Shown piece by piece: positions 14,845-36,168 of a stretch of DNA of 64,000 nucleotides. The notes beneath the pieces were generated by a model. That model was not told the origin of the DNA, made no database searches, and was given only the letters and a program-made list of their open reading frames with translations. The first letter of the stretch is position 1. Every line of letters begins with the position of its first letter. Source of the stretch: Minisyncoccota bacterium (GTDB lineage: Bacteria; Patescibacteriota; Minisyncoccia; Phycocordibacterales; JAGLPS01). The position numbers and the translations under genes were made by a program. The stretch spans positions 683 to 64,682 of the forward strand of contig JAGLPS010000006.1 of NCBI GenBank assembly GCA_023137185.1, given 5' to 3'.

Positions 14845-15562
14845 GACTTTTCAGCAACTCTTCTAATTGATTTTTAGTGTATTTGAATTTTATACAGTTG
14901 TCAATTTTATTGATATTTGCCTTAAACTGAATTGTCTGGTGTTTAAAATCTTTTTCCACAAGATAAATTGTAATATTTTTACCAAAATGCTCTTTTAGTT
15001 TGTTTACGACATCCCTTGCTGCGATAAACTGCTCGATGAAAGTCTCTTTTAGTATCCTACGACCATCTTTTTCTTCACGGCGTATGGTAAATTCCCATGC
15101 AATAACCGGATCTTGATAAATATAAAAAATAAAAATAGTTCGGTTTTTATCTAGGGAACGTTGAATATTATCTTTTGCTTTTTCCAAATTTGAAAGAGTA
15201 CCATCAAGAATGAAGTTTTGTTCGTTCGTTAGTACACTATCGTGAATTTTTTCCACAGCAATTGAAACTGCTCCTTGAAATAAATAAGCGTTGCCACCGG
15301 TATAGCCGGGTAATTTGTTTCTAATTTCATCAGCGTCAATACGTGCTACATGACTTTTGTTATCATCCCAGAGATTTTTAAGCAATCCTTTTGAAAATTC
15401 CGTCTTCCCCGCTCCGGGAGAACCCGCCATAAAAACAGATACTGGCGTGGTATCCGGAAATATTTTCTCGGGGTCGGCAAATTCTTGAACGATTTTTTTA
15501 AAGTTTTCCCTCTTTTTTACAAACTTAATTGCTGCTCTTTTAATATCTTCTTCAGATAACAT
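14831..15562 (-). CDS. Zeta-toxin-like P-loop kinase (PF06414-like)
   Basis: 243 aa; Walker A GSPGAGKT, DADEIR, overall zeta/UNAG-kinase-like layout; leaderless start 7 nt after a TAGAAT -10. Confidence 0.55.
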   Translation of the reverse strand: MLSEEDIKRAAIKFVKKRENFKKIVQEFADPEKIFPDTTPVSVFMAGSPGAGKTEFSKGLLKNLWDDNKSHVARIDADEIRNKLPGYTGGNAYLFQGAVSIAVEKIHDSVLTNEQNFILDGTLSNLEKAKDNIQRSLDKNRTIFIFYIYQDPVIAWEFTIRREEKDGRRILKETFIEQFIAARDVVNKLKEHFGKNITIYLVEKDFKHQTIQFKANINKIDNCIKFKYTKNQLEELLKSHETI

Positions 15563-15570
15563 AAACTTAA

Positions 15571-15665
15571 TTCTACACCACTTCCCCGCCTACGCGCACA
15601 CAAGTCTAAATTTTAGGGAATTAAGACAAATTATCGAGAAATTATCGAGGTTCAACCTCGATAAA
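15571..15665 (-). promoter_or_regulatory. Duplicated ~95-nt upstream region (copy 1) with -10-like gtggtgTAGAAT directly before a leaderless ATG, plus palindrome ttatcgag-N4-ttatcgaggttcaacctcgataa
   Basis: Near-identical to 16939-17045, which precedes the NYN gene. Palindromic core atcgaggtt-c-aacctcgat is also present at 47.8 kb and 54.6 kb. Confidence 0.5.
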
Positions 15666-16931: not shown

Positions 16932-16938
16932 AATGCTA

Positions 16939-17045
16939 TTCTACACCACTTCCCCGCCTACGCGCGCACAAGTCTAAATTTTAGGGAATTAAGGCAAATT
17001 ATCGAGAAATTATCGAGGTTCAACCTCGATAATTTCTCGATAAAC
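16939..17045 (-). promoter_or_regulatory. Duplicated upstream region (copy 2) containing a perfect 45-nt palindrome ttatcgagaaattatcgaggtt-c-aacctcgataatttctcgataa (16999-17043) and the leaderless promoter of the NYN gene
   Basis: direct sequence comparison with 15571-15665. Confidence 0.5.
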
Positions 17046-17106: not shown

Positions 17107-17682
17107 CTAGATTTTGGTGTAAAAAACCGATTTCCCGGTGTTCCCGACCTGTTTTATGCGATTTTCTGCTTCAAGAATATCTAAATATCTTACCGCTGTG
17201 GCGCTTGATATTCTAAGTAGTTTTTGAATATCTTTGTTTGTTATTTGAGGCTTTGTCTCAAAAAGAGCTACAACCTTATCTAATTTTTTCCGTCTTCGTT
17301 CTTGAATTTTTGCCCGCGCTTTCACAAGTAATCTTTGAACAATATTCGGATCGGTTTTGTAGATAATTTGTGTTTGAACTTGAGATTGCTGTGGTTGTGG
17401 CTCTGATATTGGCATAGGTTCTTCTGAAACAGAAGAATGTGTGGGAGCAGGTTCTGACACAGTTTGTTCAACCACTTCTTCATCCGCAAGGACTGCTGTT
17501 TCTTGTGGTTGTTCTATTGGTGCTGTGGTTTGAACTTCAGAAATGGTCTCTGGTTGAATTTTCTCAGTTGCTTCTTCAATAGGGTCTGCCGACGGCTCAA
17601 CAATAGGTTCAGTAGCCACAGGTTCTACTGGTACAGTAGTTTCTTCTACTATGTCTTGAGTTTTATTTTCTTCTGGTGGCAT
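17107..17682 (-). CDS. Protein with disordered acidic Pro/Glu-rich N-terminus and C-terminal winged HTH
   Basis: 191 aa; C-terminal KDIQKLLRISSATAVRYLDILEAENRIKQVG is HTH-like; 11 nt after the hsdS stop. Confidence 0.45.
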   Translation of the reverse strand: MPPEENKTQDIVEETTVPVEPVATEPIVEPSADPIEEATEKIQPETISEVQTTAPIEQPQETAVLADEEVVEQTVSEPAPTHSSVSEEPMPISEPQPQQSQVQTQIIYKTDPNIVQRLLVKARAKIQERRRKKLDKVVALFETKPQITNKDIQKLLRISSATAVRYLDILEAENRIKQVGNTGKSVFYTKI

Positions 17683-17693
17683 ATTGTCTTGAA

Positions 17694-19136
17694 CTACAAT
17701 TTTAATTGATTATTTGATGAATTACGATTGTTTTTTTCAATCTCCTCCTCAACTCTCCTTTTCGCTTCTTCTAAAAGCTCTTTGCTTTCTTTTCTCAATT
17801 TATGGCTTTCCTGTATTTTTTCTGCAATCTGTTTTTGAATTTTTGGGTTGATAAGAGGAATTTTAAATTTTTCAAAATCTGATGGTTTTAGATGGGCGAT
17901 TATTGCTCCGCCTGATAATTTTTCAACTTGCGTTTTAGAAATAATGGAATTGAAAATCAGAGACAGGCATTCTTTTTCAAAAGTTTGATATTTGTCTTTT
18001 AGGCTCAATCTTAAAAACGCTCCGCTCAAAATTAGATCAAATTCTTCTTTGACGACATAACTTAAACCGATTGTTCCATCTTTGGTAAATAAAATATCGT
18101 CCCGTTTAGGCTGATAATCATTTTTTAATTCCTGATAAAGCCCTTTTGAAATTTTCTTGCCTGTGTCTTTAACTCCGTTTATTGAAAAATCCGAAACTCT
18201 CCCAAATGACATTCCGTCCTGCTGATATGTTTCGCTCCCAACCTCAACGCCTTTTTTCCAATTCACTATATTTTTAACAAAATTCCAGCCGTTTTTATAA
18301 TTTTCAATCTTTTTAATTATCTCATCATATTTCGGCTGAAAATATTCCGCGTCAAATCTCCCCGCCTCGTCTGTTTCTTTTTTTGTAGTTTGAAATGATA
18401 AAATATGCTCTAGCTTGTAATCCCCTCCTTTGCCAAGGCTTCGGCGGGCAGGCAACAAATCAACCTCTTTCAAAAGCGTTTCTTCGGCTTGTTTGTAAAG
18501 TTGTTTTGATTGGGTTTGTTTTTCGTAAGCGAACTTTACGATTTTTTCTATTTGGAGTTGGAAAGATTGAGGAAGGATTGGGATTTTTAAATCAGTAAAA
18601 TTAAAAACGTTTAATTTGGGTTGTGCGTTACCGCTTATTCTTCTTAATATTTGATTTTGACCATACTTTGAATTTAAAAAAGTTAAAATAAAATATTTTA
18701 TTTCTTCATTGTAATTCTCTAGTTTTATACCGATATTATTTTCAGAGACATTTGCTCTTTTCATTTCATTATCTATTCTTGCAATCAAGCCAATTGTATT
18801 TCCAACTTTTGAGACAACTAAATCGCCTTGTTTTAATTCAGAATTTTTAATCTTATTATTACTATCCTCAGAAATACAAACCATATTTTCTTTTTCTAAA
18901 AAAAATCTTTGTCTTATGTCTTGAACTCTTACAAAATAAACACCTTCATTAAGATATTCTTCACTTTTTAAAGTTGACCCAAAGGGACCTGATACAACCT
19001 CATTTTTTGATAAATAAAAATGTTTTAAATTGTCCAATTTCTCTTCAATCTCCAAATATTCCAGTTTAAAAAACTCCGCGTCAAACCTGCGCGCTTCTTG
19101 AACATCTGATTTTTTGATAATTGAGATTTGTGGCAT
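17694..19136 (-). CDS. hsdS: Type I restriction-modification specificity subunit
   Basis: 480 aa; two target-recognition domains separated by conserved coiled-coil repeats; N-terminus MPQISIIKKSDVQEARRFDAEFF. Confidence 0.85.
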   Translation of the reverse strand: MPQISIIKKSDVQEARRFDAEFFKLEYLEIEEKLDNLKHFYLSKNEVVSGPFGSTLKSEEYLNEGVYFVRVQDIRQRFFLEKENMVCISEDSNNKIKNSELKQGDLVVSKVGNTIGLIARIDNEMKRANVSENNIGIKLENYNEEIKYFILTFLNSKYGQNQILRRISGNAQPKLNVFNFTDLKIPILPQSFQLQIEKIVKFAYEKQTQSKQLYKQAEETLLKEVDLLPARRSLGKGGDYKLEHILSFQTTKKETDEAGRFDAEYFQPKYDEIIKKIENYKNGWNFVKNIVNWKKGVEVGSETYQQDGMSFGRVSDFSINGVKDTGKKISKGLYQELKNDYQPKRDDILFTKDGTIGLSYVVKEEFDLILSGAFLRLSLKDKYQTFEKECLSLIFNSIISKTQVEKLSGGAIIAHLKPSDFEKFKIPLINPKIQKQIAEKIQESHKLRKESKELLEEAKRRVEEEIEKNNRNSSNNQLKL

Positions 19137-19142
19137 ATTATT

Positions 19143-20948
19143 TTAACTTTCCAATTTATCTTTTATGAAATTAAAAATTTCCTTAAAATTTTTCTTTGTT
19201 GTGTTTAACAAATTAAAACTTTCGCCCTTAATGAAAAGTTCTTGAATGGCTGTATTAAATTTACTTTTTTCATATTCCACGCTATCAGGAAAAGATAATT
19301 TTTGAATCCTCAATCTCTCCGCAGAAGTATGAAATAGTTTTTCAGTTTGAAAATTGCTAAAATTTTCTTTTATTTCTTTCAGGGTAAATATGTGCTTTTT
19401 TAATTCTTCACTTACATTATTTAAATAATTTTTTTTCGCTCTTTTTCCCGGAATGTCATCATCAAAAATTGCAATAAATTTTTTGTTATTTGCTAAATAT
19501 TCGCGAAAAATATTCTCGTGCTTATCAACTCCTGCCCCAGGATAAAAGTTAAAATCATAATCATCATTAAAAAATTGCTCTTTTACCCATTTAAACGTGT
19601 AGTAATCAAATTTACCTTCAGTGAAAACAATGTTTTTAGTCTGCTCAAAAGGATTTTTAATATATTCTAAACAATCTAAAATTGGCTGAAAGTGTGTTTC
19701 CTCGTTTTCATTGTTTGCAACAAAATTCCTATATAGTTCTGCGTCAATATTCTGGCTGTAGTTTTCCATATCAATCACTCCGCTACTGTCTTCTTTTCTG
19801 CCTTTGTCTTTCACAACAAATGAAGTAAGTAAAAATTTTGGATTTAATAAATAGTGGCTATGTGTTGAATAAATTATTTTTGATCTGTCAATTAACTTTT
19901 CAAAAAGTTTTAGCAATTTTTGCTGGGATCCTTGATGTAAATTACTTGCTGGTTCATCAAATAAAAATAAATATTCTCCTTTTTCAGTTTGTCTTGCCTT
20001 TCTAAATTCAGTAAAAAGCAAAAAGCCAAAATACCATCTAAAACCCAAACTCATTTCATTGATGTAAAAACTGCTTGCCCCCTCTTTAATTTTAAATTGC
20101 AAAAAATAACCATTGGTATCTTTATTATGTTCAATTTCAATATTCTTTCTTGTTGAATTAGAAAAAATTTGTTGCCAAGACTGCACTATGACAGAATTTA
20201 ATTTTTGACTCATTTCATTTAATATTTGTTTTGCGGATTCTTCATCATCCTCGCTTGTACTTTTTAATCTATCTAGAATATGTTTATTTAAATTATAAGA
20301 CTCATCAATGCTACTTAAAATGTCTTGTAAAATTTTTCTATATTCTTTTTGAGTGTCCGTTTTTGTTAATTCCGAATTTTCAATATTTTCAAGATAAATT
20401 TTGTCAGGAAAATCAAATAGAAAATTTTCAAAATACAAAATTTTTGGAATTAACTTTTCTTTAATTTCTGTTGTTAACGCATCCCAATGTTCGTTGTATC
20501 TATCGTACATATCAACAAAATTTTTTGCTTGTTTTGTCTTTACTTTTAAATCAATGTTCCACAAAACACTAAAACCTCTATCAATAAATTTAGAATCTTT
20601 GAATTTATATTTTTTAGTAATTGATATTTCATCTATTTCTTTTTCTAATTCTAATTTTTTCTTTAGTAAAAAAGATTCAATAAATTTTTTGTCATCATTA
20701 CCCAATTTTAAAGTTGCTTTAATTGTTACTACATCGTTAAAATTTGCTTTTTTATTCTTATGTATCATCTCGTGCTCGCTGCCCTCAATTTTATTTTGAA
20801 ATAAATCTATTGCTTCTAAAATTGTAGTTTTTCCGCTCTCGTTTAACCCAACTAATGGAAAAATTTCTCCATTCGGTTGTTTTGTTAAATCTAAAACAAG
20901 ACTATTTATCCCTTTAAAATTTTTTATTTTGAATTTAATGTATTTCAT
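19143..20948 (-). CDS. OLD-family nuclease: N-terminal ABC ATPase fused to C-terminal Toprim domain (Gabija GajA / class-1 OLD-like)
   Basis: 601 aa; Walker A GLNESGKTT, Walker B LFLFDEPASNLH, H-loop YSTHSH; Toprim glutamate (VFTEGKFD) and DxD (IFDDD); stop is 6 nt before the hsdS ATG. Confidence 0.75.
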   Translation of the reverse strand: MKYIKFKIKNFKGINSLVLDLTKQPNGEIFPLVGLNESGKTTILEAIDLFQNKIEGSEHEMIHKNKKANFNDVVTIKATLKLGNDDKKFIESFLLKKKLELEKEIDEISITKKYKFKDSKFIDRGFSVLWNIDLKVKTKQAKNFVDMYDRYNEHWDALTTEIKEKLIPKILYFENFLFDFPDKIYLENIENSELTKTDTQKEYRKILQDILSSIDESYNLNKHILDRLKSTSEDDEESAKQILNEMSQKLNSVIVQSWQQIFSNSTRKNIEIEHNKDTNGYFLQFKIKEGASSFYINEMSLGFRWYFGFLLFTEFRKARQTEKGEYLFLFDEPASNLHQGSQQKLLKLFEKLIDRSKIIYSTHSHYLLNPKFLLTSFVVKDKGRKEDSSGVIDMENYSQNIDAELYRNFVANNENEETHFQPILDCLEYIKNPFEQTKNIVFTEGKFDYYTFKWVKEQFFNDDYDFNFYPGAGVDKHENIFREYLANNKKFIAIFDDDIPGKRAKKNYLNNVSEELKKHIFTLKEIKENFSNFQTEKLFHTSAERLRIQKLSFPDSVEYEKSKFNTAIQELFIKGESFNLLNTTKKNFKEIFNFIKDKLES

Positions 20949-20970
20949 GAGTGATTAAATTAAAATTAAA

Positions 20971-21096
20971 TTATCTCCAAAACCCCAACCCATTCTCCCT
21001 CCCCCACTTCTCAAAAGCAAAAGCGATCTCGTCTAAGTCGTCAAACTTGCGCGCTTCTTGAACATCTGATTTTTTTATAATTGAAATTTGAGGCAT
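20971..21096 (-). other. Junction repeat 2 with chimeric 41-aa mini-ORF MPQISIIKKSDVQEARKFDDLDEIAFAFEKWGRENGLGFWR (hsdS N-terminus fused to hsdM C-terminus)
   Basis: Start 2 nt after the stop of the upstream cassette gene. Its stop lies 22 nt before the OLD ATG, reproducing the native hsdM-stop/hsdS-start spacing. Confidence 0.6.
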
Positions 21097-21098
21097 AG

Positions 21099-22025
21099 TT
21101 AATTTTTAATTTTAGAAACCTCTGATGGCTCAATTTCTTTCCCTTCTGGTTTAGGGTTAAATTCTATACTTTTATAATTTTTACATTGAAATAATTGATA
21201 TTTAATAAGTTCATCAAACTTCAAATTTCCTTTTTTTAGATCTGATGGATGAATTACAATAATTAATTTTTCGCAAATCGCTTTATATTTAGATGTATCT
21301 ATAAAAGTATCTATAATTTGCTTAATAATAATTTCTCTGGTTAGCTCAGGATTTCTTCCATGTTGTGCATTTATTAGAGGAATCACAATAGATTCATCTT
21401 TACTTGAATCAGAGGAAAGAAATTCCCATAATCCATTTAAGCTAAGCATAAAATCATCTATAGAGGATTTGACTCTATCATTTTTTTGTTTCTTTGAATT
21501 TACAAGTAAATAAAACCTTTTTATTTTATTTTTAAACAATTTCTTTTTTTGCTTTTCTATTTCAATAACCTTTCCTATCTCAAAAGGAGTATCCCTAATA
21601 TTTATTTTTTCCTTTATTTTATCGTCTAGTTGTTTTGAATCATTATTAAAATAATCTTTAATTAATTTATTCTGAATACTTTTTGCTTCTTTAACATTTC
21701 CATTCAGGGATGTATCAAAATAATTATTAAACGGAACTATTTGTGAACCTTTAACATTAAAAGCATCTCCAATTTTCAACTCAATGCAAGAGTCTCTATC
21801 TCTAATTTTTATAGAATGAGATGATTTCGGATAATTTTTAAAAATTGCATATAAAAAACTTGAACCTAAAATGCACCAAAATATTAAAGGAAGATTTAAT
21901 CTTTCACTTACAGAAGAGAAAAAATATGAAATAATTTCTGTGATTAGCCACAAAAAACCAAGACAAGAAAGAAAGTCTTTAATAGCAAAACGCCAATTTT
22001 GTATCCATCTTTTTATTAAGATCAT
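21099..22025 (-). CDS. Two-TM membrane protein with ~230-aa cytoplasmic C-terminal domain of unknown family (candidate effector/sensor of the TIR cassette)
   Basis: 308 aa; two N-terminal hydrophobic helices; start overlaps the TIR gene stop (ATGA). Confidence 0.45.
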   Translation of the reverse strand: MILIKRWIQNWRFAIKDFLSCLGFLWLITEIISYFFSSVSERLNLPLIFWCILGSSFLYAIFKNYPKSSHSIKIRDRDSCIELKIGDAFNVKGSQIVPFNNYFDTSLNGNVKEAKSIQNKLIKDYFNNDSKQLDDKIKEKINIRDTPFEIGKVIEIEKQKKKLFKNKIKRFYLLVNSKKQKNDRVKSSIDDFMLSLNGLWEFLSSDSSKDESIVIPLINAQHGRNPELTREIIIKQIIDTFIDTSKYKAICEKLIIVIHPSDLKKGNLKFDELIKYQLFQCKNYKSIEFNPKPEGKEIEPSEVSKIKN

Positions 22026-22528
22026 AATCCTAGTTGCTGGTAAACTGTATCTTTGTAATGATAAGCTCCTGTTTTATCATTATTTCTAAAAGAAGAATCT
22101 GAATCAAACCAATCATCAATAGCATGTTCAATTATCTTTTGTTTAAAATTCACATGAACAGCTAATTCGTCTTTTAGTATTGTTGGACATAAATCAGAAT
22201 CCATACTTGTTTTCCCATTTAAATTTACTACAATAATCGGAATATTTCTTTTTATTGCCTGCTCAATTTCCCAACGAACAAATTTATAAAGATGTTTCGT
22301 ATTATCTCCCACAAGAAGAATAAAAACTTTCGTGTTTCTTAATCGTTCAGCAAGTTTTGCCTTAATAGTTTCTTCTGTAGAATCTGACATAAGATTATTT
22401 AAATCATGAGCATCATAAAAATTAAATGAAGTATTATCACTTTTTTTCCAAGCTTGCATTAAACGATAATAATGAATGTCATTATCTGCATCAAAAGCAA
22501 CATATGTTTTGTTTGTATAAATTGTCAT
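22022..22528 (-). CDS. TIR-like domain protein (DUF1863/ThsB-like)
   Basis: 168 aa; YVAFDADNDIHYY N-terminal strand and KVFILLVGDNTKH..WEIEQAIKRNIPIIVV pattern of bacterial TIR-like (ThsB) domains. Confidence 0.6.
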   Translation of the reverse strand: MTIYTNKTYVAFDADNDIHYYRLMQAWKKSDNTSFNFYDAHDLNNLMSDSTEETIKAKLAERLRNTKVFILLVGDNTKHLYKFVRWEIEQAIKRNIPIIVVNLNGKTSMDSDLCPTILKDELAVHVNFKQKIIEHAIDDWFDSDSSFRNNDKTGAYHYKDTVYQQLGL

Positions 22529-22567
22529 AAAAATATTTTAGATTAATAAATTAATTTTTCCAAAAAT

Positions 22568-22879
22568 TCAACTCTTCCTTTTCACAAGAGTTTTTCCTGT
22601 TTTACCTCTTCGTAATTGGACTTTCGGCATATTCTTTTTTGCGTGATCCAAAGCCTCATCATTAAAACCTTTTGTTGAAACAATTACATCTGCATGGTTT
22701 TGTTGATACGCTTTTTGTAATTGAAATTTCGTAAGAGGCTTTTTGTAATCTTTCACTTCAACTTTATCTCCTCCCTTTTTAATATCTGGATTATTTGGTC
22801 CAGCTTTTCTTGTGCCATCAATTCCTTTGGCGACTTTTTTCTCTGCTCGTTTTCCTTTTTTTGCATTGTTATCTGTCAT
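22568..22879 (-). CDS. Small basic protein with possible minimal PD-(D/E)xK motif
   Basis: 103 aa; NNPDIKKGGDKVEVKDYKKP could be PD...ExK; weak. Confidence 0.3.
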   Translation of the reverse strand: MTDNNAKKGKRAEKKVAKGIDGTRKAGPNNPDIKKGGDKVEVKDYKKPLTKFQLQKAYQQNHADVIVSTKGFNDEALDHAKKNMPKVQLRRGKTGKTLVKRKS

Positions 22880-22907
22880 ATTATTTTAAATTAAAAAATT
22901 AATAAAT

Positions 22908-23039
22908 TTATTTCCAAAAACTCAACCCATTCTCCTTCCCCCACTTCTCAAAAGCAAAAGCGATCTCGTCTAAGTCGTCAAACTTGCGTGCTTCATTGAA
23001 TATCTGTTTTTTTATAATTGAAATTTGCGGCATAGCCAT
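22908..23039 (-). other. Junction repeat 1 with chimeric 43-aa mini-ORF MAMPQISIIKKQIFNEARKFDDLDEIAFAFEKWGKENGLSFWK
   Basis: Nucleotide-level copy of the hsdM 3' end joined to the hsdS 5' start; start 1 nt after the stop of the 379-aa gene. Confidence 0.6.
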
Positions 23040-23040
23040 T

Positions 23041-24180
23041 TTAATTTATATGATAATGCTTAATTGCATTATTTCGAATAACTAAAAGATAACTTTCTGT
23101 TTTCCAGCATTGTTGATTATCACATATCTCACTAACATATTCTTTTTCATTAAAAATAACGAAGTTTATCTCTTTTAAAAATGTATTTCCACAAACAAAA
23201 TTCTTAATAAAATCTTTATTTTTTATATTTCCAATTAAATATAAAGTTTCCAAATTTGATTTTGTAAATTCCTCTATATATCTTTTGTAAGGAGCACTAC
23301 CTTGCTCATAAATTTTGTCTGTTTTCCCGATTATAATCATTCCAAATTTACAATAATTACCTAAAAATCTATTATCGGTTTCTTCATTGATTTTTCGCCT
23401 TGAATAATTATTTAAAAATTTTATTAAATTTGTAACCTCTGTAATAATTAAATCGTCTTTTCTATTATTAAAAACTTTTTCTCCTAAAAAAATCATCTCT
23501 TGAATAAAGACAGGAAAAAATAATCCTTTTTTATCAATACTTTGATATTTAACAAATAAATCATCAACTATTTTTTCTTCTATTTTTGGATGTAAAAAAT
23601 CTTCAATAAATTCTTTTACGACATCTTCTTTCTCCTCTTCAAATATTTTCTTGCCAACAAATAAATCTATAGATTCTTTTTGTTTTTCACTTATATATCT
23701 TTTTGCTTTAATTAATAAATTTTCTGCTATAAAAATCATAGTTGCATTAACAAAGTTTTTATTTTCATTATCATTTTTCCTTATTCTAACAATCATTTTT
23801 CCATTCTCTAAAAAAGATTTTGGTATTTCACTATCACTTACCCATTCCACTTTTAGTTTTATTGGCATAAAACCTTTAATTTCTCTTTTTAAAAAACCGT
23901 TAACAAAAGAATTAGTTCTACTTTGAAAATCATGCTGGATATATTTTTTCCTGATTACGGGAACTGTTTTAAAAATTTTTGATAATGCTTTATAAAATAA
24001 TGCAATAAATTTTTCAAATCTATCGGGATAAAATACAGCACAAACAAAAACTATGAAAAATAAAAACCAACCGCCGTATGCGAACATACAGTCAAAAAAA
24101 ACTTTCGCGCTTTCCCCGTCATTAAAATTTATATTAATTGGCATATTTATTTTAAATATACTAATAGTTTTTTTATACAC
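23041..24180 (-). CDS. Hypothetical protein with one N-terminal TM helix (cassette 1)
   Basis: 379 aa, Lys/Glu/Phe-rich, no recognisable motif. Confidence 0.4.
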   Translation of the reverse strand: MYKKTISIFKINMPININFNDGESAKVFFDCMFAYGGWFLFFIVFVCAVFYPDRFEKFIALFYKALSKIFKTVPVIRKKYIQHDFQSRTNSFVNGFLKREIKGFMPIKLKVEWVSDSEIPKSFLENGKMIVRIRKNDNENKNFVNATMIFIAENLLIKAKRYISEKQKESIDLFVGKKIFEEEKEDVVKEFIEDFLHPKIEEKIVDDLFVKYQSIDKKGLFFPVFIQEMIFLGEKVFNNRKDDLIITEVTNLIKFLNNYSRRKINEETDNRFLGNYCKFGMIIIGKTDKIYEQGSAPYKRYIEEFTKSNLETLYLIGNIKNKDFIKNFVCGNTFLKEINFVIFNEKEYVSEICDNQQCWKTESYLLVIRNNAIKHYHIN

Positions 24181-24380
24181 TCAGGCGAATCGCACACAAA
24201 TTTTATATCTTCTGATTTTTTAAATAAAGAATGCAAGTTTTCAACATTAATTATATTTTTGCAAAATTCACATTTTTTTCTTCCTTGTACAAAATCATCT
24301 AAAATGCCAAGCCTTTTCAGCATTCCTTTTAAATCATCATCGTATACTAGATTGATTTTCTTTTTTTCTTTTTTGAACAT
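24147..24380 (-). CDS. Small protein with C-terminal CxxC...C..C zinc-ribbon-like motif
   Basis: 77 aa; CEFCKN...CDSPEC. Confidence 0.3.
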   Translation of the reverse strand: MFKKEKKKINLVYDDDLKGMLKRLGILDDFVQGRKKCEFCKNIINVENLHSLFKKSEDIKFVCDSPECIKKLLVYLK

Positions 24381-24404
24381 ATTAATTTATTTATTTTCAA
24401 AAAA

Positions 24405-25070
24405 TTATTTTTCATCTCTCTTTTCAATAGCTTCTTTGGAATTTTCTGGTAAATCGTTATAAAAACTGTCAATTTCTTTTTGTTCTGTAATCATTTTTTC
24501 TGCTATAAAATTTAGCAATTCAAAAAGTTTCAAGACTTTTTCTGTCTCTTCTTCAAGATTTATTTCTCCTGGGTGAACCGCACCATTTCCTGTTATTCTA
24601 AGTATATCCAAAGATTTTTGAATTTGAGGATTCAACCCTTTTTTAACTAACTCCTTTATGTCATCATTTATATTTTTTCCTTTTTCACCAAGCTGTTTGC
24701 AAAGTTTTTGTAACGCTAATCTTAAAAGTGCAGCAGATGCTCGCGGAGAATCACTAAAAATATTTGCCGCTTCTAAATAATCCTTTTTAATGTCACCAGA
24801 CAAATCATCGTTAGGCAGATCAACAATCATTTTTTTAGGATATATAATTTCATTTTCAAGCCAAATTATTTTTTCGCTACAATGTTTGCATCGTGACATT
24901 TTCCATTCACTTGATAAATTCTCGTTAAACTTGCTAACACCGTAAAAATCATCTCCATAAACATGATGACCTGTAATATGTCCCCATTGTTGCTCTGCAA
25001 ATACTCCACAGTGCGGACAATGGAATTCGCCGTAATTCAATATTGGTGGATAATGTTTTTCTTTTGTCAT
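24405..25070 (-). CDS. Zinc-finger + DUF4145 domain protein
   Basis: 221 aa; CPHCG...CKHCSEK N-terminal Zn finger; C-terminal LRLALQKL...ILRITGNGAVH pattern of DUF4145; starts 21 nt after the hsdM stop. Confidence 0.55.
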   Translation of the reverse strand: MTKEKHYPPILNYGEFHCPHCGVFAEQQWGHITGHHVYGDDFYGVSKFNENLSSEWKMSRCKHCSEKIIWLENEIIYPKKMIVDLPNDDLSGDIKKDYLEAANIFSDSPRASAALLRLALQKLCKQLGEKGKNINDDIKELVKKGLNPQIQKSLDILRITGNGAVHPGEINLEEETEKVLKLFELLNFIAEKMITEQKEIDSFYNDLPENSKEAIEKRDEK

Positions 25071-25091: not shown

Positions 25092-27119
25092 TTATCTCCA
25101 AAAATTCAACCCATTCTCCTTCCCCCATTTCTCAAAAGCAAAAGCAATATCGTCTAAATCGTGTTTTTGTTTTAGGTGGTTATGCTCATCAAGTTTTCTT
25201 TCTCCATTTTTATCAACTTCGTAAATCTCATCCCCCGAATTATCTTTGCCTGAATTTTCACTCACCGCCATAAATATTTTATAATCATCAACCTTTGGAT
25301 TGATTTTTTCATCCCATTTCTGCACAAACAAGACAGAAGTTTTTGTTCCCGTATGCGGTTTGAAAGTATTGCCGTCAAGCCCGACCACCGCTAAAAGGCG
25401 CGCCCGCTCCATTATAAAATCCCTGATCCTTTCATCGCTCGTATTATTAAACCTTCCCTGCGGCAAGACAATCGCCATTCTTCCGCCCGGTTTTAGAAAA
25501 TCCAGATTCCTTTCAATAAACAAAATGTCTCTTGAAATATTATCAATCTGCTTGTCTTTTTTATAAGCCACTTCATAGCAAGCCGTCATCCTTTTATCTT
25601 TAATATCTCCGGCAAAAGGCGGATTCGCCATTACCAAATCAAAATTAAATTCTTTTGGATTTTTTCTGTCTTTCGCCAAATCCAGCAATCTGTAAAAACC
25701 CTCTAAATAAGTTCTGCTCCATTCCCGGTCTTTCAGTTTTTCTTCCCACCTTGTGTAATCAAGCGAATTCAAATGCAAGACATTTGTCCTGCCGTCGCCC
25801 GCAATCATATTTAAAGTCCGCGCGACACGAACCGATTTTTCGTCAAAATCAATCCCGAAAACTTTTAAGACATATTCCTTTTGCTCTTTGGTCGGTTTCT
25901 GATTTGAAAAATTGCTGAATTGCGCCTTGCCGTTGCCTTTTAATTTTTCCCAAACATTAAAAAGCGTATGTACTGTAAATCCGCAAGACCCGCAAGCCGT
26001 ATCTATCATATACTCGCTTGGCTTTGGATTAAGCATATAAACGCACATATCAATTACATTTCTTGGCGTAAAATACTGTCCTTTTTCTCCTTTGGCGGAT
26101 TTGTTGACCAGATATTCAAACGCTTCGTCAATCACCTGCAGATTGGAATTGAAGAGTTTTACATTCTGCAAAAATCCGACGCAGATTTGCAGATGGTTTT
26201 CATCCGTAATGCGAAGCGGTTCGCCTTTTTCAAAAATTCCCGGCCATTTTTCTTTGGCTTTCTGAAAAAGATTATTGATGACTTCTTTCGTATGATGCGC
26301 ATCGCCGCGACTTCTGAATTCCAGTTGCGTTAATCCTTTTATTTTAACTTTAGCCAAAATTTCTTTATCAGATAAATCAGGATTTTCTTCTCTTAGTTCT
26401 TTAAATTTCCACTCTATTTTTTGCCTATCTTCCGAGCTTTCCATTTCATCATAAAGCTTGATAAAAATCAGTTTAAAAACTTCTTCAAAAACATCCACGC
26501 CGGCATTTGCCAGAACTTCGTCCTCCATTTCCTGAATTAAAGTTTTCAAAGATTTTCTTTCTTCCTGAAGCTTGTCTTTTTGCATCAGTTCCAAATAAGT
26601 AAAAATTTCGTTTTTTACATCGTCTATTGTTTCATTCGCTTTTGGAATATCAGAAAGCGGTTCAAAATAATTAGGATCCAATCGCTCGTAATAATTTATT
26701 TCTGTTCCGTTCGTCCAAACCGCCAAAGGTGCGCCTGTCGCGTTTGTGTAGCTTTTCAACTGGTCTTTCCCATCTTTCGCTTTGTGCTTTTTAATTTCCA
26801 AAACACAATAAACGCTCGTTTTATCTTTTTTATTTAAAATAATAATATCCGCTAGCTTCTTTTCCCTGCCAAAAGAAATAGAAAATTCAACCCTTATCAA
26901 ATCAACGGGATAATTATATTCATTAAGAAGTTTATCAAGCGTTAATTGCCTCACAATCTCCTCCGGCTTTGCTTGAATGTCTTTTTCTCTTTTCAAACAT
27001 TTAATAAAATGCTTTCCTTTTTTCTCAAAAATGCTTTTCTCAACTCTGTCTATGCTTTCCGCGGAAAAAGTCGTCAAATCATATTTCCCGCCTGATTTTA
27101 TAAGTTGCGATAGATTCAT
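25092..27119 (-). CDS. hsdM: Type I restriction-modification DNA methyltransferase subunit
   Basis: 675 aa; N6-adenine MTase motifs DTACGSCGF (motif I) and NPPF (motif IV); HsdM N-terminal domain. Confidence 0.9.
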   Translation of the reverse strand: MNLSQLIKSGGKYDLTTFSAESIDRVEKSIFEKKGKHFIKCLKREKDIQAKPEEIVRQLTLDKLLNEYNYPVDLIRVEFSISFGREKKLADIIILNKKDKTSVYCVLEIKKHKAKDGKDQLKSYTNATGAPLAVWTNGTEINYYERLDPNYFEPLSDIPKANETIDDVKNEIFTYLELMQKDKLQEERKSLKTLIQEMEDEVLANAGVDVFEEVFKLIFIKLYDEMESSEDRQKIEWKFKELREENPDLSDKEILAKVKIKGLTQLEFRSRGDAHHTKEVINNLFQKAKEKWPGIFEKGEPLRITDENHLQICVGFLQNVKLFNSNLQVIDEAFEYLVNKSAKGEKGQYFTPRNVIDMCVYMLNPKPSEYMIDTACGSCGFTVHTLFNVWEKLKGNGKAQFSNFSNQKPTKEQKEYVLKVFGIDFDEKSVRVARTLNMIAGDGRTNVLHLNSLDYTRWEEKLKDREWSRTYLEGFYRLLDLAKDRKNPKEFNFDLVMANPPFAGDIKDKRMTACYEVAYKKDKQIDNISRDILFIERNLDFLKPGGRMAIVLPQGRFNNTSDERIRDFIMERARLLAVVGLDGNTFKPHTGTKTSVLFVQKWDEKINPKVDDYKIFMAVSENSGKDNSGDEIYEVDKNGERKLDEHNHLKQKHDLDDIAFAFEKWGKENGLNFWR

Positions 27120-27200
27120 AATTTTTTGTTAAAAGTTTCGTAATAAATTTATTTTGATTGATACTTTTGTTTCTTTGAAATTTGCTATATTTTTATTTAA

Positions 27201-27710
27201 TTAAATCATCCCTCCAGAGGCGGGCAGGCAGGCGAAATACCGAGAGCGTCCGCGATTTTTTAACTGTGTCAATGGTGGGGTTTGGCGTTGCGCGTCGCCG
27301 ACCGCTTTCATAAACTCATCGTAGTTTTTGGCAATGCGTTTGCGATTTATTGTATACCCTTGAACAAGATATTCTTTTAATATCTTGTTCGCCCACTTCC
27401 TAAATTCAACAGCTTGAGCGGAATTTGTTCTATATCCTACGGATAAAATAACATCAAGAGAATAAAAAGAAACCGGCTTATCTGAATTTGCAATGTGCAT
27501 TTTTTGCACATTGCTTTTTTCACTTATTTCTCCAGATTTAATGATCGTTCTAATATGCTTTGTGATCACAGATCGTTCTACACTAAAAACTTCAGCAATC
27601 TGTGCCTGTGTCGCCCATATATTTTCATGCTCAAAATCGCCTCGAAGTTCAATCGCTCCGTTTTTTGCTTGATAAATAATTATATTGTTTGCTGTTTTTT
27701 TCTTTTTCAT
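27201..27710 (-). CDS. RhuM-family (virulence protein RhuM / DNA-binding) protein
   Basis: 169 aa; IYQAKNGAIELRGDFEHENIWATQAQIAEVFSVERSVITKHIR matches the RhuM family commonly found beside hsdM. Confidence 0.7.
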   Translation of the reverse strand: MKKKKTANNIIIYQAKNGAIELRGDFEHENIWATQAQIAEVFSVERSVITKHIRTIIKSGEISEKSNVQKMHIANSDKPVSFYSLDVILSVGYRTNSAQAVEFRKWANKILKEYLVQGYTINRKRIAKNYDEFMKAVGDAQRQTPPLTQLKNRGRSRYFACLPASGGMI

Positions 27711-27889
27711 AATTTATATTTCGCTTTAAACATCCCTCCAAAGGCGGGCAGGCAGGCGAAACGCCGAGCGCGTCCGCAATTTTTTAACTGTGTCAATAGT
27801 GGGGTTTGGCGTTGCGCGTCGCCGACTACTTCGGCGTCTTTGCGCATAATGTTTTGGATATTTTTGATGATGTTTTGTATTTCGGACAT
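27707..27889 (-). pseudogene. Duplicated 3' fragment of the RhuM gene (~100 nt) fused to unrelated N-terminal sequence
   Basis: 27722-27820 is ~90% identical to 27208-27305; encodes ...VGDAQRQTPLLTQLKNCGRARRFACLPAFGGM. Confidence 0.5.
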
Positions 27890-27890
27890 A

Positions 27891-28985
27891 TTATTTCCCT
27901 CTTTGAGCTTCTGTTATCGCGCGATCAACCATAAATCGCACGGCTTCATTCATATGAAGATTTTCAATCTTTATAGATGGATGTTTTTTCTGAAAAACCC
28001 GATATATTTCATCCGCAAATGCCTGACCAACCATAGGAACATTTTCATAATCCAACGCAACAACCTTGAACTTTTCAAGACCGGAAAGAACACGCCGCGC
28101 TTGCGAGCGCGATATATGCACTCCCCCCGCAATATATAGACGTACATACACTTCAGTCTTATCAAAACCGTACTCACCACCAACACCCGTGTCAGTATAT
28201 TTACGAAAAATATCATTGAGATGATGCCTGTCGTCTATGTTGATACGAAATGTAACTTTTGTCCCCTGTTTTTGACCTTTAACTTTTTTTACAAATATAT
28301 CGTCTATTTTATTGTTTGCAATAAATTGGTACCCGTAACTATCGAGAATAAATTCATCACCAACTTTTGACGTAAAGAAAATACCTTCACCGGAATGAAG
28401 TTTTGGCTCAGTTGTCATCTTGCCCTTGAGAAGGTCTTGTATTGCTTCCATTTCCGATTTAAGATGTCGTTTTTTCATAATATTACGATATACTCCTACA
28501 CCAAAATCATCGACGGCAAACGACAACTCATCGTCATTTAATGAAACCGAAACATTAATTTTCTTTGAACCGGAGTGTTCAATTGCATTGTTCAGCATCT
28601 CAGAAAAAGCGTATGTAAAAATACTTTTTATATTTTCCGAAAATCGACTAAATGGAAGAAATCTGTGTTCTATGTCATCAAGAACGATATGTTCTTCAAG
28701 ACCTTTGTTAACAAGTTGTCTGGTATATATATTTGGAGTAACATCCGGATGCTCTTGAATGTATTCCACCGTCGCATACCTCGCCGAACGCGTTGAACCA
28801 AGTTTTATAAGCTTTTTTTCTTCAACAAGATTAGATATGAGCTTGTTCGCATATTGCCGAGAAACTCCAAAAGAACCCGCGATATTACGGCTTTTAATTA
28901 TCCCTTTTTCCTGCGCTATTTTAAGAATGTGTTCCGTGTTTATCATATGTAAACTGATTGTAAACAATCGGTTTACAATTGTCAA
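27891..28985 (-). CDS. wHTH + GHKL-type ATPase (HATPase_c) + STAS-like (DUF4325) protein
   Basis: 364 aa; N-terminal HTH, N-box EMLNNAIEHSG, C-terminal STAS-like region. Confidence 0.5.
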   Translation of the reverse strand: MTIVNRLFTISLHMINTEHILKIAQEKGIIKSRNIAGSFGVSRQYANKLISNLVEEKKLIKLGSTRSARYATVEYIQEHPDVTPNIYTRQLVNKGLEEHIVLDDIEHRFLPFSRFSENIKSIFTYAFSEMLNNAIEHSGSKKINVSVSLNDDELSFAVDDFGVGVYRNIMKKRHLKSEMEAIQDLLKGKMTTEPKLHSGEGIFFTSKVGDEFILDSYGYQFIANNKIDDIFVKKVKGQKQGTKVTFRINIDDRHHLNDIFRKYTDTGVGGEYGFDKTEVYVRLYIAGGVHISRSQARRVLSGLEKFKVVALDYENVPMVGQAFADEIYRVFQKKHPSIKIENLHMNEAVRFMVDRAITEAQRGK

Positions 28986-29005
28986 CTAATTGTAAGCAAC
29001 TTCTG

Positions 29006-29194
29006 CTATGCAGTATACAACTGCCTCTCAATCTCCTCCGGCTTCGCCTGAATATCGCTCTTTCTTTTCAGGCATTTAACAAAAAACTTTTTGTTTTTCT
29101 CAAAAATCTTTTTTTCAACCCTGTCTATACTTTCCTCGGAAAAAGTCGTCAAATCATATTTCCCGCCTGATTTTATAAGTTGTGATAAATTCAT
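29006..29194 (-). pseudogene. Duplicated 5' fragment of hsdM (first 57 codons, ~235-nt repeat including the upstream region)
   Basis: MNLSQLIKSGGKYDLTTFSEESIDRVEKKIFEKNKKFFVKCLKRKSDIQAKPEEIERQL vs the hsdM N-terminus; 29000-29233 approx equals 26925-27158. Confidence 0.7.
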
Positions 29195-29238
29195 AATTTT
29201 TTGTTAAAAGTTTCGTAATAAATTTATATTGCCTATAA

Positions 29239-30678
29239 TCACATCAAAAGAAAATATTTTAATGGAATTTTCAACGCGTTTGCTTCTGCATTATATTCTA
29301 AAACATCAGTTCCTTCTGAAACAACAATGCCACAAGTCGCTTTTACTTTTTCTGCTGTCTGCGTTACCTGCTTATATTCCTTTTTATTCATTCCGACCTC
29401 AAGCACGATTTTGTTTTCTCCACTGCTTAATATAAAATCAGCCCCGCCTTTCGCGCTGTCATAAGTAAGAGAAAAAGACGGCTTTTTGTCGCACAAACGA
29501 TAAAGATACATTCCAATCAGATCTTCCAGAAGTTTTCCGCGCGCGTTTTGTTCCGTTATGACATTGCCAATTGTTTTGTAATACATCGCGCGAAATGCCG
29601 GCGAAGAAAAGAGATATTTTGACGGTTTTTGCGTTACCTGTTTAAAATGAGAGCCGTGCGGATATACGCGGTGTAAAATTTCCGTTTGTTCAAGGACGGA
29701 AAAAATTTCTGCTATTTTGGGACGAGAAATGCCGAATTTTTCTGCTAGTGTCGTAAAATTCAAAACATCCATATCCGCCACGGCATACAAAATCGCCGAA
29801 ATTCTTCCGATAATATCAGACGAAAGCCCTCGCATTTGCGGAATATCTTTATTGATTACTCGCTCAAGAGATTTATTTATTTGGTCATAAACCAAAGCTT
29901 CATTTTGAAGCGCAATCATAAACGGCAATGAACCGTAATGAAGATAATTTTCAAAATCTAACCGGCTGATGCCATGATAATACTCGTTTATTTTCTGTTC
30001 CGATTTTTTTAGCGCGTTAAATACTTCTCCGGCATTTCGTCCGCTAAGAATAATCTCTCTTAACTTTTGCGATAACCCCTTAATTTCGTATTTGTTTCTT
30101 TTGATTTTAATAAATTCCGTGAATGAAAGCGGATAAATTCTTTCATAAATGGCGCGTCTGGCAATGTCGGAATTGCTGTTTATAAGAGCGGCTGCCGATC
30201 CTGTTGAAAATATAAAGACATTATCCGCACGGTCGTAAATTGTTTTAAGAATCGCTCCCCATTTTTCGTCATACTGCACTTCGTCTAAAAACAAAAACAA
30301 AGGTTTATCCAAGTTTGTGATTGACCGACCGATTATTTCTTCGAAAATATTTATAACTTCATTAATATTACTTCCAAGAGTTTGCGTGATTTCATCAACA
30401 GAAAGAATTAAAAAGTACCCGTCAATATTTTTCTTGGCGTAATACAGCTGATACATAATTGTTGTCTTGCCGGCTCCGCGCAAACCGGTAAGTGCCACCC
30501 AGCGATAAGATTTATTGCCGCCGAGGAATTGGTCAAAATGAGACTGTATCCGTATAAAAATATTTCTGTTTGGCCTTTTTTTGTTTTGCGTGTCAAAAAC
30601 ATACGCCCGCCCGCGAAAATCGGCTTGAGCAATTTGGTCGTTTATAAATTCTTTGATTTTTTCTTTATTTACAGGCAT
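29239..30678 (-). CDS. AAA+ ATPase with C-terminal DUF4143
   Basis: 479 aa; Walker A GLRGAGKTT, Walker B FLFLDEVQ, typical COG1373 architecture. Confidence 0.75.
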   Translation of the reverse strand: MPVNKEKIKEFINDQIAQADFRGRAYVFDTQNKKRPNRNIFIRIQSHFDQFLGGNKSYRWVALTGLRGAGKTTIMYQLYYAKKNIDGYFLILSVDEITQTLGSNINEVINIFEEIIGRSITNLDKPLFLFLDEVQYDEKWGAILKTIYDRADNVFIFSTGSAAALINSNSDIARRAIYERIYPLSFTEFIKIKRNKYEIKGLSQKLREIILSGRNAGEVFNALKKSEQKINEYYHGISRLDFENYLHYGSLPFMIALQNEALVYDQINKSLERVINKDIPQMRGLSSDIIGRISAILYAVADMDVLNFTTLAEKFGISRPKIAEIFSVLEQTEILHRVYPHGSHFKQVTQKPSKYLFSSPAFRAMYYKTIGNVITEQNARGKLLEDLIGMYLYRLCDKKPSFSLTYDSAKGGADFILSSGENKIVLEVGMNKKEYKQVTQTAEKVKATCGIVVSEGTDVLEYNAEANALKIPLKYFLLM

Positions 30679-30885: not shown

Positions 30886-30985
30886 ACACCCCCCAAGCCG
30901 CCCCCTAGGGGGCGGCTTTGGGTTTTTTGCAAGGCCATGAGCTTGTTGAATGGCTCCCCTCTTGGACAAGTTCAGAACTTCAGAA
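30886..30985. repeat. Repeat R-beta copy 1: terminator hairpin (aagccgcccc-ctag-ggggcggctt + T-run) followed by ttgcaaggccatgagcttgttgaatggctcccc...gttcagaact
   Basis: Similar to 32810-32922 and partially 35795-35842. Confidence 0.6.
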
Positions 30986-32651: not shown

Positions 32652-32739
32652 GACTTTTTTAATTTGTGTTTAAAAGCCGTCCCGAGCTTTATCGAGGGAC
32701 GGCTTTTATTTTTTCTTTATATGAAAAAGCGCGTTATGC

Positions 32740-32922
32740 AACAAACGCCGAACATACAATTTGGCTCCGCAATCAAAACATCAACAAACTTTTGAAATTA
32801 TTTTGCCGAACCCCAAAGCCGCCCCTTAAGGGGCGGCTTTGGGGAATTTGTTTTTGCAAGGCCATGAGCTTGTCGAATGGCTCCCCCAACTGGATGCGTT
32901 CAGAACTCTGGATTGGGTAGAA
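32740..32922. repeat. Repeat R-alpha (caacaaacgccgaacatacaatttggctcc) plus R-beta copy 2 (terminator 32812-32856 then ggccatgagcttgtcgaatggctcccccaactggatgcgttcagaactctggattggg)
   Basis: R-alpha recurs at 35917-35947; R-beta at 30886-30985 and 35795-35842. Confidence 0.6.
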
Positions 32923-33286
32923 ATAAAGAACGATTTACAGTTTAGCAATATATTAGACCTATCCCCCAAACTAGCATTTCAACACTAATTTTTATTTTTC
33001 AACAACTCATCAATATCGTAACCTATGTATTTTCTTTTACTTACAGAGCTTAGTCCCAAAAGCTTTAGTGTTTCAACTTTCAGTTTATATCCACTCCACT
33101 CACCGAATTTTTTTATTATTTTATGATATTATAAAAAATAAATGAGTCGTACTCAACCAATTAATAACCACAAAAAACGATAAACAATTCAAAATTTACA
33201 CCCAAAACTATTATAGTAATTTTAATTATTGTGATTGCTGTTGTGTTTCTAGGTATTAAACTTTTTAAAACATCTGAGACCACTGA

Positions 33287-35794: not shown

Positions 35795-35842
35795 GTTGGC
35801 TCCCCCAACTGGATGAGTTCAGAACTTTGGATTGGGGGAAGA
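35795..35842. repeat. Repeat R-beta copy 3 (ggttggctcccccaactggatgagttcagaactttggattggggg)
   Basis: matches 32868-32918. Confidence 0.55.
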
Positions 35843-35916
35843 TAAAATTGGAAATGAGGAGATTAGATTTTGTTTTATCAAACCTGTTTTGAGCAAACTC
35901 TTCTTGTAACAAACTC

Positions 35917-35960
35917 GCAACATACAATTTGGCTCCCCCGGTAGGATTCGGCTACAAGTT
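35917..35960 (-). repeat. R-alpha copy 2 fused to a 23-nt remnant of the tRNA-Asn 3' end including CCA (cgaatcctaccgggggagccaaa in minus orientation): att-like scar
   Basis: 18 nt identical to the T-arm/acceptor 3' strand of the tRNA at 36097-36168. Confidence 0.55.
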
Positions 35961-36096
35961 TTTGCTCGCCGTCGCTCGCAAAACTTTCAGCCCACCCCTC
36001 GCGGTTTTGTCTGCTGACAAAACATCGCTGCGGTCTTCAAATCTTCCCCGCGCGCAAAGTAGTTTGCGCGCTCGGACTCGCACTCGCAGACTCGTG

Positions 36097-36168
36097 CTCC
36101 CCCGGTAGGATTCGAACCTACGACCAATCGCTTAACAGGCGAGTGCTCTACCACTGAGCTACAGGGGA
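36097..36168 (-). tRNA. tRNA-Asn (anticodon GTT)
   Basis: 72 nt; acceptor tcccctg/cggggga (one GU), D-arm gctc-agtggta-gagc, anticodon loop ctGTTaa, T-arm gtagg-ttcgaat-cctac; CCA not encoded. Confidence 0.85.

Follow-up and report, generated by a model that had tools for sequence, protein, structure and literature searches.

A probable recombination patchwork of restriction–modification gene fragments upstream of hsdM in a Minisyncoccota bacterium

In this work, we analysed a 64,000-nucleotide (nt) stretch of contig JAGLPS010000006.1 from a Minisyncoccota bacterium (assembly GCA_023137185.1), hereafter the window, whose HsdM protein is labelled Candidatus Pacebacteria at NCBI. Our subject is the DNA directly upstream of an intact hsdM gene of 675 amino acids (aa) at 25092–27119, where two pairs of direct repeats, D1 and D2, are nested and enclose an intact gene (27891–28946) that encodes, according to Pfam, a winged helix-turn-helix (wHTH), a GHKL ATPase and a STAS-like DUF4325 domain. 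Every gene and gene fragment of the region is encoded on the minus strand. Following transcription, one meets an AAA_14 ATPase gene, the upstream copy of the first repeat (D1b), the GHKL gene, a 60-aa open reading frame (ORF) that contains one copy of the second repeat (D2b), a truncated RhuM gene (RhuM′), the other copy of the second repeat (D2a), a 44-nt spacer and, finally, D1a, which is the start of hsdM itself. The left flank is formed by the AAA_14/DUF4143 ATPase gene (29239–30678), a PADLOC candidate (PDC-S01) with a stop codon 8 nt before D1b.

A repeat search delimits D1 as 26944–27156 and 29019–29231, 213 nt without gaps at 88% identity, and D2 as 27201–27307 and 27725–27831, 107 nt at 91% identity. 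The two pairs align with blastn E values of 2.8e-73 and 7e-38, respectively, and each of two conserved D2 cores occurs twice in the window, with none expected from shuffled sequences. Both repeat pairs are real, and chance is excluded. The original prediction of nested duplications around an HTH–GHKL gene upstream of hsdM is thus borne out, and the outcome that would have undone it, repeats falling below significance on alignment, did not occur. An extension of D2 into the start of RhuM or into the spacer was not significant once the core was excluded, and no relative was detected for the spacer itself, an AT-rich segment at 27157–27200 between D2a and D1a.

The same arrangement is found in independent assemblies of other samples from the same study (contigs L001–L004 and L063–L066). 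One contig (L003) covers the region from the AAA_14 gene to 21 nt beyond D2a, another (L001) covers RhuM′, D2a, D1a and hsdM, and a third (L064) covers AAA_14, D1b and GHKL with one single-nucleotide polymorphism (SNP), so that every junction is present in at least one independent contig from another sample. The four assemblies differ by 1 SNP and are otherwise identical in structure, with no rearranged, excised or circular variant and no empty site among them; exact-protein look-ups of HsdM, GHKL and AAA_14 retrieved this one arrangement.

D1a comprises the resident leader and codons 1–59 of the intact hsdM, whereas D1b consists of a 37-nt hsdM leader and codons 1–59 of a different allele. 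From D1b arises a 62-aa pseudo-ORF (29006–29194), annotated as a gene in L002 and L003, in which these 59 codons are followed by YTA and a stop contributed by the left edge of the GHKL module. This ORF had been described as identical to the HsdM N-terminus, which is incorrect: 49 of 58 residues match, and identity is continuous solely over the first 19. The divergence along D1 is unevenly distributed, with the leader and codons 1–19 identical at 92 of 94 nt (98%) and codons 20–59 at 96 of 120 nt (80%), a contrast of 2 mismatches with 24 (Fisher p = 3e-5). Over codons 20–58, dS is 0.86 and dN 0.147 (dN/dS 0.17). Of the nine residues replaced in D1b, six (E20, N34, K35, F37, V39 and K45) have the states of other natural hsdM alleles. 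Most of the divergence in codons 20–59 therefore built up under purifying selection, and D1b is the relic of the start of a different, once-functional hsdM allele rather than a decayed recent copy of the resident one. In the same codons, D1b is no nearer to the resident gene (96 of 120) than to the foreign alleles of L006 and L046 (99 of 120), and the resident hsdM is nearer to these alleles (104–107 of 120) than D1b is. The 37-nt leader is common to the two D1 copies alone and is found with no other allele, which points to a 5′ part that was either homogenised within this lineage or derived from a sibling; its 98% identity, which takes in codons 1–19, would then reflect subsequent gene conversion between the two repeat copies or a sibling-strain donor.

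The GHKL gene appears to be a stand-alone mobile module, a unit of about 1.1 kb with its leader (27891–29018). Its left edge (28947–29018) carries a predicted promoter, TTGACA-17-TACAAT (28985–28957; 11 of 12 consensus matches), with which palindromes, a putative operator, overlap and from which the gene is probably transcribed independently. The family counts more than 6,600 homologues at E < 1e-10, mostly in Patescibacteria, and its members stand in varied company: between rplE and another hsdM, directly upstream of the latter (L051); downstream of hsdR, YgjP, HTH and RhuM genes (L052); beside a retroelement reverse transcriptase (L053); and among DUF559, RelB, NYN and PemK genes (L061). The upstream segment is conserved before the homologues in L051–L054 and L061, again in unrelated contexts. 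Homology to L051 begins at about 29018, adjoining the end of D1b at 29019, and the join between D1b and the module lies inside the microhomology GCA(A/G)TT. At the 3′ side, homology stops within the last four GHKL codons, and the start of a second hsdM, hsdM″, follows 1 nt after the GHKL stop, which suggests that the GHKL gene may have arrived together with the start of this neighbouring hsdM″. For many homologues the whole contig is of about gene length, which is what a mobile module present in multiple contexts would be expected to show. The GHKL protein matched no PADLOC defence model.

The 60-aa ORF (27707–27889) is the N-terminus of hsdM″ fused to a GC-rich tail. Its residues 3–30 match positions 2–29 of 569 of PADLOC model PDLC03025 (E 2.6e-5), a type I methyltransferase model other than the one matched by the resident hsdM (PDLC03034), and an N-terminal fragment is all that is present of this second methyltransferase. 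D2 is therefore composed of codons ~22–30 of hsdM″, about 25 GC-rich codons and a stop, and not of the RhuM 3′ end, as it had first been interpreted. D2b (27725–27831) is the copy inside the 60-aa ORF; D2a (27201–27307) forms the 3′ end of RhuM′ (27201–27710), a 169-aa ORF whose start overlaps the stop of the 60-aa ORF (ATGA). RhuM′ combines the N-terminal ~136 residues of a RhuM-family protein, about 327 aa at full length, with the D2 copy, which supplies its last ~33 codons. It covers the N-terminal part of the profiles alone (positions 8–69 of 252 in Pfam PF13310 and 4–146 of 327 in PADLOC PDC-S23) and is thus a truncated fragment of a family (PF13310; PADLOC PDC-S05/S23) with full-length members of ~300–330 aa. 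A 327-aa relative in L026 diverges from RhuM′ after '...FMNAV', continuing as '...KNYQAFMNAVDDIKLL...' where the window has '...KNYDEFMKAVGDAQRQTPP...', and the RhuM′/D2a join reads 'KAV|GD' against the native '...NAVDD'. By this comparison, RhuM is cut at about residue 136 and runs on into D2.

Several other identities were considered for D2. A structured RNA found no support, with fold z-scores of +0.1 to +1.9 on both strands, none significant; no terminator was predicted in D2, and Rfam returned a single meaningless small Cajal body-specific RNA (scaRNA) match (E 0.059). A dispersed element resembling a miniature inverted-repeat transposable element (MITE) is disfavoured by the presence of just two copies in the window. 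The exact D2 pattern had no match in two metagenome scans and one viral scan, blastn found none in plasmids or phages, and a protein search with the 60-aa ORF recovered no relative except its own entry. A weak match of the tail to alphaRep designs (E 0.0097) would make it one HEAT-like repeat, which is speculation at most, and a 47-aa ORF that follows RhuM in L052 has no relation to D2.

The resident HsdM carries HSDR_N_2 and N6_Mtase domains and is an N6-adenine methyltransferase by its matches to PF02384 (E 1e-32) and to PADLOC MTase_I PDLC03034 (862 bits). Its partner hsdS lies at 19136–17694 (PF01420). A tblastn search with an HsdR query found no hsdR in the window, and the system is thus not a complete type I system; HsdM has an N-terminal nuclease-like domain, HSDR_N_2, in place of a separate hsdR. 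The protein also matches MAD2 of the MADS system at 309 bits, under the 720-bit cut-off. The hsdM family is 78–93% identical across Patescibacteria, Bacteroidales, Endomicrobia, Gammaproteobacteria and one archaeon, a distribution that indicates very frequent transfer and suits the gene to serve as a homologous anchor.

In about 35 related loci, the pairing of hsdM and hsdS is conserved around a variable cargo, which often includes an AAA_15 ATPase and sometimes RhuM, the latter always downstream of hsdM and before hsdS; hsdM–AAA_15–hsdS seems to be a frequent core layout. The genes upstream of hsdM vary among the relatives (a Fic, Phd–ParE or HTH gene), and 10 of 41 related loci, from about seven lineages, have extra copies of the hsdM 3′ end on the downstream side of the gene. 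Contigs with close hsdM alleles (87–92% identical; L005, L008, L025 and L036) often end at codons 47–64 or at the last codons of the gene, which suggests that assemblies of other genomes, too, are interrupted by gene ends of a repeated or variable kind.

Between hsdM and hsdS, the window holds three cassettes: a DUF4145/PD-T7-4 gene with an unknown gene; an Mrr-like gene with ThsB and ThsA-macro; and an AAA_15/AriA-like gene. In this island (19143–25070), the DUF4145 protein is a PD-T7-4 homologue (E 1.8e-87), the ThsB-TIR/ThsA-macro pair follows a small Mrr-like protein, the AAA_15 protein is AriA/OLD-like, and GC content is 22–30% against about 41% in the flanks. The cassettes are separated by two units of 134 nt, J1 (20964–21103) and J2 (22901–23040). 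In each, the hsdS ribosome-binding site and first 19 codons run in frame into the final 22 hsdM codons, giving a 41-aa mini-ORF; J1 shares the fusion point of J2 and is 93% identical to it. A contig from a metagenome-assembled genome (MAG) labelled Andersenbacteria (L043) has one unit with the same fusion point and one with a different point (15041–15177 and 17561–17710), and further hsdM 3′-end or fusion units are seen in L046 (3494–3544 and 5351–5411) and L025 (2902–2961). The 12-mer ATAAATTTATTA, which follows J2, occurs at three sites in the window (0.04 expected), right after the J2 stop (22900–22911) and at both D1 heads (27141–27152 and 29216–29227), and thereby links the hsdM leader with an inter-cassette linker. 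This hsdM–hsdS array is more noteworthy than the scar at the 5′ side. At the far edge of the island, a 95-nt direct repeat (98% identity; 15570–15664 and 16938–17032) brackets a module of an FtsK-gamma-domain gene and a NYN-domain gene.

No integrase, invertase, transposase or recombinase was found among the scanned ORFs of the window, and the remainder of the 64 kb consists of housekeeping genes. A tRNA-linked integration was also considered and set aside: the sole tRNA gene, tRNA-Asn (36096–36168), has a 3′ end unlike the nearby 'TGGCTCCCC...' repeats. Segments of 36–50 nt are repeated at 30890–30959, 32722–32927 and 35797–35936, around a radical-SAM gene and close to tRNA-Asn. Among them are GC-rich hairpins and 'TGGCTCCCCCAACTGGA...', similar to a tRNA 3′ end in reverse complement; none matches the 3′ end of tRNA-Asn.

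We propose, with a probability of about 0.6, that additive recombination at a defence-gene hotspot left the 2.3 kb upstream of hsdM as a static patchwork, and not as a working device. As judged from the alignments, it joins fragments of at least three loci associated with restriction–modification (RM), namely D1b from another hsdM allele, the GHKL module with the first ~30 codons of hsdM″, and the first ~136 codons of RhuM, to which two GC-rich D2 tails are added, and its inner joins fall within microhomologies of 3–6 nt. Under this proposal, donor DNA with its own intact hsdM would have been joined illegitimately, through microhomology, into the previous resident hsdM at codon 59, while a homologous exchange within the conserved hsdM/hsdS region anchored its other end. 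The earlier hsdM start would thus have been left upstream of the insert as a relic, an analogous join would have cut RhuM and duplicated D2, and later gene conversion between the D1 copies, or a sibling donor, would have given the 98% identity of the first 94 nt. Similar scars on the 3′ side of hsdM in about seven lineages of relatives lend support. Through all of this hsdM stays intact, the structure is needed for nothing obvious, and the ORFs of 62 and 60 aa probably arose as by-products without function. The repeats retain perfect runs of 43 and 46 nt in D1 and 28 nt in D2, so RecA-type deletion between them is conceivable, and an exchange within the first 94 nt of D1 would delete GHKL and RhuM′ and leave HsdM unchanged.

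Five observations weigh against this proposal. Neither an empty-site relative nor a donor locus is present among the about 66 loci examined, and it is therefore by reconstruction that we infer the order of events and the direction of transfer. The near-identity of the leader and codons 1–19 requires an extra step, whether gene conversion or a sibling donor. A second copy of the hsdM 5′ end is present in none of the 27 related loci with at least 2.5 kb of upstream sequence, which precludes any generalisation. The GC-rich part of D2 has no relative in protein, metagenome, viral, plasmid, phage or Rfam searches. Lastly, the occurrence of ATAAATTTATTA at both D1 heads and behind J2 hints at a boundary logic more regular than that of a random scar.

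Other histories could produce direct repeats around foreign genes. A Campbell-type insertion, in which a circle carrying an hsdM 5′ fragment, GHKL, D2b, RhuM′, D2a and the 44-nt spacer entered by a single crossover in the hsdM 5′ region after an earlier event at D2 had inserted RhuM′, would account for the direct repeats on both sides of each insert, the signature of a single crossover, and for a truncated gene flanked by D2 with a junction resembling a microhomology circularisation join; the hsdS5′::hsdM3′ fusion units that bound the cassettes between hsdM and hsdS would then be circle junctions. A foreign circle would not, however, be expected to share the lineage-specific 37-nt leader, the crossover alone leaves the 98% identity 5′ of the crossover point unexplained, and neither a circular or excised form nor an empty site was seen in the four assemblies, and we regard this history as rather unlikely. 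Still less can be said for a tandem duplication in situ, in which slippage or unequal crossing-over copied the resident hsdM 5′ end, and D2, and the non-functional copy then decayed neutrally. It would fit the genome-specific, 98% identical leader and codons 1–19, but it is largely refuted by the dS and dN/dS of codons 20–58 and by the natural allele states at six of nine replacements, and it accommodates neither the strong heterogeneity of divergence along D1 nor the foreign patchwork between the repeats, which makes it very unlikely.

That D1 and D2 serve as sites of a site-specific integrative element or of a programmed switch, such as a shufflon or phase variation, is highly improbable. 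Recombinase-driven hsdS variation is known for type I systems (PMC7672463), the repeats do lie at gene ends, and contigs of other assemblies break near them. Yet the repeats are direct rather than inverted, and long and 9–12% diverged rather than short identical cores; the window encodes none of the enzymes that such a switch would use (integrase, invertase or transposase); and the four samples offer no alternative arrangement, nor do the related loci offer a recurrence. A chimeric contig built from strain variants is scarcely credible: the source is metagenome-assembled and the repeats coincide, at least closely, with the ends of several sister contigs, but each junction recurs in a contig from another sample and the 9–12% between the repeat copies is enough for assemblers to resolve them.

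The original prediction had further held that the repeat-mediated cassette shuffling seen between hsdM and hsdS also operates on the 5′ side of the locus. What stands of this is that the 5′ structure is a product of recombination at RM gene ends, that gene-end units do separate cassettes between hsdM and hsdS (J1 and J2), and that ATAAATTTATTA connects the two sides. The rest is not supported. D1b did not arise by recent copying of the resident gene end, given the 20% difference and the dN/dS of its codons 20–59, and the inner junctions (GCA(A/G)TT and 'KAV|GD') are illegitimate rather than repeat-mediated. The structure is a one-off, with a 5′ copy in 0 of 27 related loci against extra 3′ ends in 10 of 41, and the uniform structure of the four assemblies gives no sign of ongoing activity. 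Moreover, the RhuM genes of relatives lie between hsdM and hsdS, whereas here an N-terminal fragment lies upstream and it is D2, not the end of RhuM, that is duplicated. The 5′ scar is a lineage-specific, single historical recombination event at a defence hotspot.

On a broader and more speculative level, the conserved ends of hsdM and hsdS could form a recombinase-free, integron-like capture platform in Patescibacteria, in which portable boundary units (the hsdS5′::hsdM3′ mini-ORF and the post-stop linker ATAAATTTATTA) carry defence cassettes that are stacked through recombination, homologous or illegitimate; a further docking site would be the hsdM leader and 5′ end, which has this linker at its head, with the D1/D2 scar as its first recorded use. 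We consider this doubtful and put it forward as a tentative idea. The 5′ scar is of value because it preserves an earlier hsdM allele in fossil form and draws attention to the more regular array downstream. Readable junctions of this kind, from relic starts and microhomology joins to reusable gene-end fusions, point to a route of accretion in small-genome uncultured bacteria in which highly conserved methylase and specificity genes provide the anchors for recombination.

Duplicated or repeated hsd fragments invite comparison with several known systems. In phase-variable type I systems, inverted repeats inside hsdS act with a dedicated recombinase and give rise to mixed populations (PMC7672463). 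The likeness to such hsdS invertons and shufflons is limited to repeated hsd gene fragments in the vicinity of type I genes; the locus analysed here has direct repeats, lacks a recombinase in the window and keeps one structure in four assemblies, so it is not one of them. Integron arrays are closer to the region between hsdM and hsdS in having same-strand cassettes with a repeated boundary unit, and the hsdS5′::hsdM3′ fusion point is common to the window and the L043 contig. Unlike integrons, the locus has no IntI integrase and no attC hairpins (as the D2 fold z-scores illustrate), its boundaries are fragments of the flanking genes and its inner junctions at the 5′ side are irregular, which sets it outside that class. 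Genomic islands that enter at the end of a gene and bring a substitute copy of that end, with tRNA or gene-end att duplications as their mark, also have a duplicated gene end flanking inserted DNA with the target gene intact, but here there is no integrase, the repeat is 213 nt long and 12% diverged, and the insert is 2 kb of gene fragments plus one gene.

Defence genes embedded in type I RM, BREX and DISARM loci are established (Payne et al. 2024, bioRxiv 10.1101/2024.01.29.577857), and TgvAB lies inside the VPI-2 type I operon (PMC11411939). In the main text of Payne et al. 2024, the terms 'recombination' and 'hsdS' do not occur, the lone matches to 'duplicat' and 'repeat' are unrelated, and nothing is said on how embedded genes arrive. 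Truncated or duplicated hsdM fragments receive incidental mentions alone in the literature that we searched, where we found no description of duplicated gene-end scars. Our locus is alike in that defence or candidate genes (PD-T7-4/DUF4145, ThsB/ThsA-macro, AriA/OLD-like AAA_15, RhuM PDC-S05/S23 and AAA_14 PDC-S01) lie on the same strand in or beside a type I-like M/S pair, and the cargo in this slot differs among relatives. Embedded defence genes in this sense are the cassettes between hsdM and hsdS, as PrrC is in another RM locus. GHKL and RhuM′, in contrast, precede the live hsdM, with a dead fragment of such a gene on their other side, and are thus not inside an intact system.

Exchange at the conserved flanks of hotspots is a familiar idea. 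Homology-facilitated illegitimate recombination, reportedly described by de Vries and Wackernagel in 2002, is said to combine one homologous anchor with a microhomology join. The difference is that here the donor, the crossover at the anchor and natural competence are all deduced. The likeness extends to the main hallmarks of the process: foreign DNA stands beside a conserved anchor gene (78–93% identity in the hsdM family), the start of a recipient gene is left truncated, and the junctions carry microhomologies of 3–6 nt, at GCA(A/G)TT between D1b and GHKL and at 'AV|GD' between RhuM′ and D2a.

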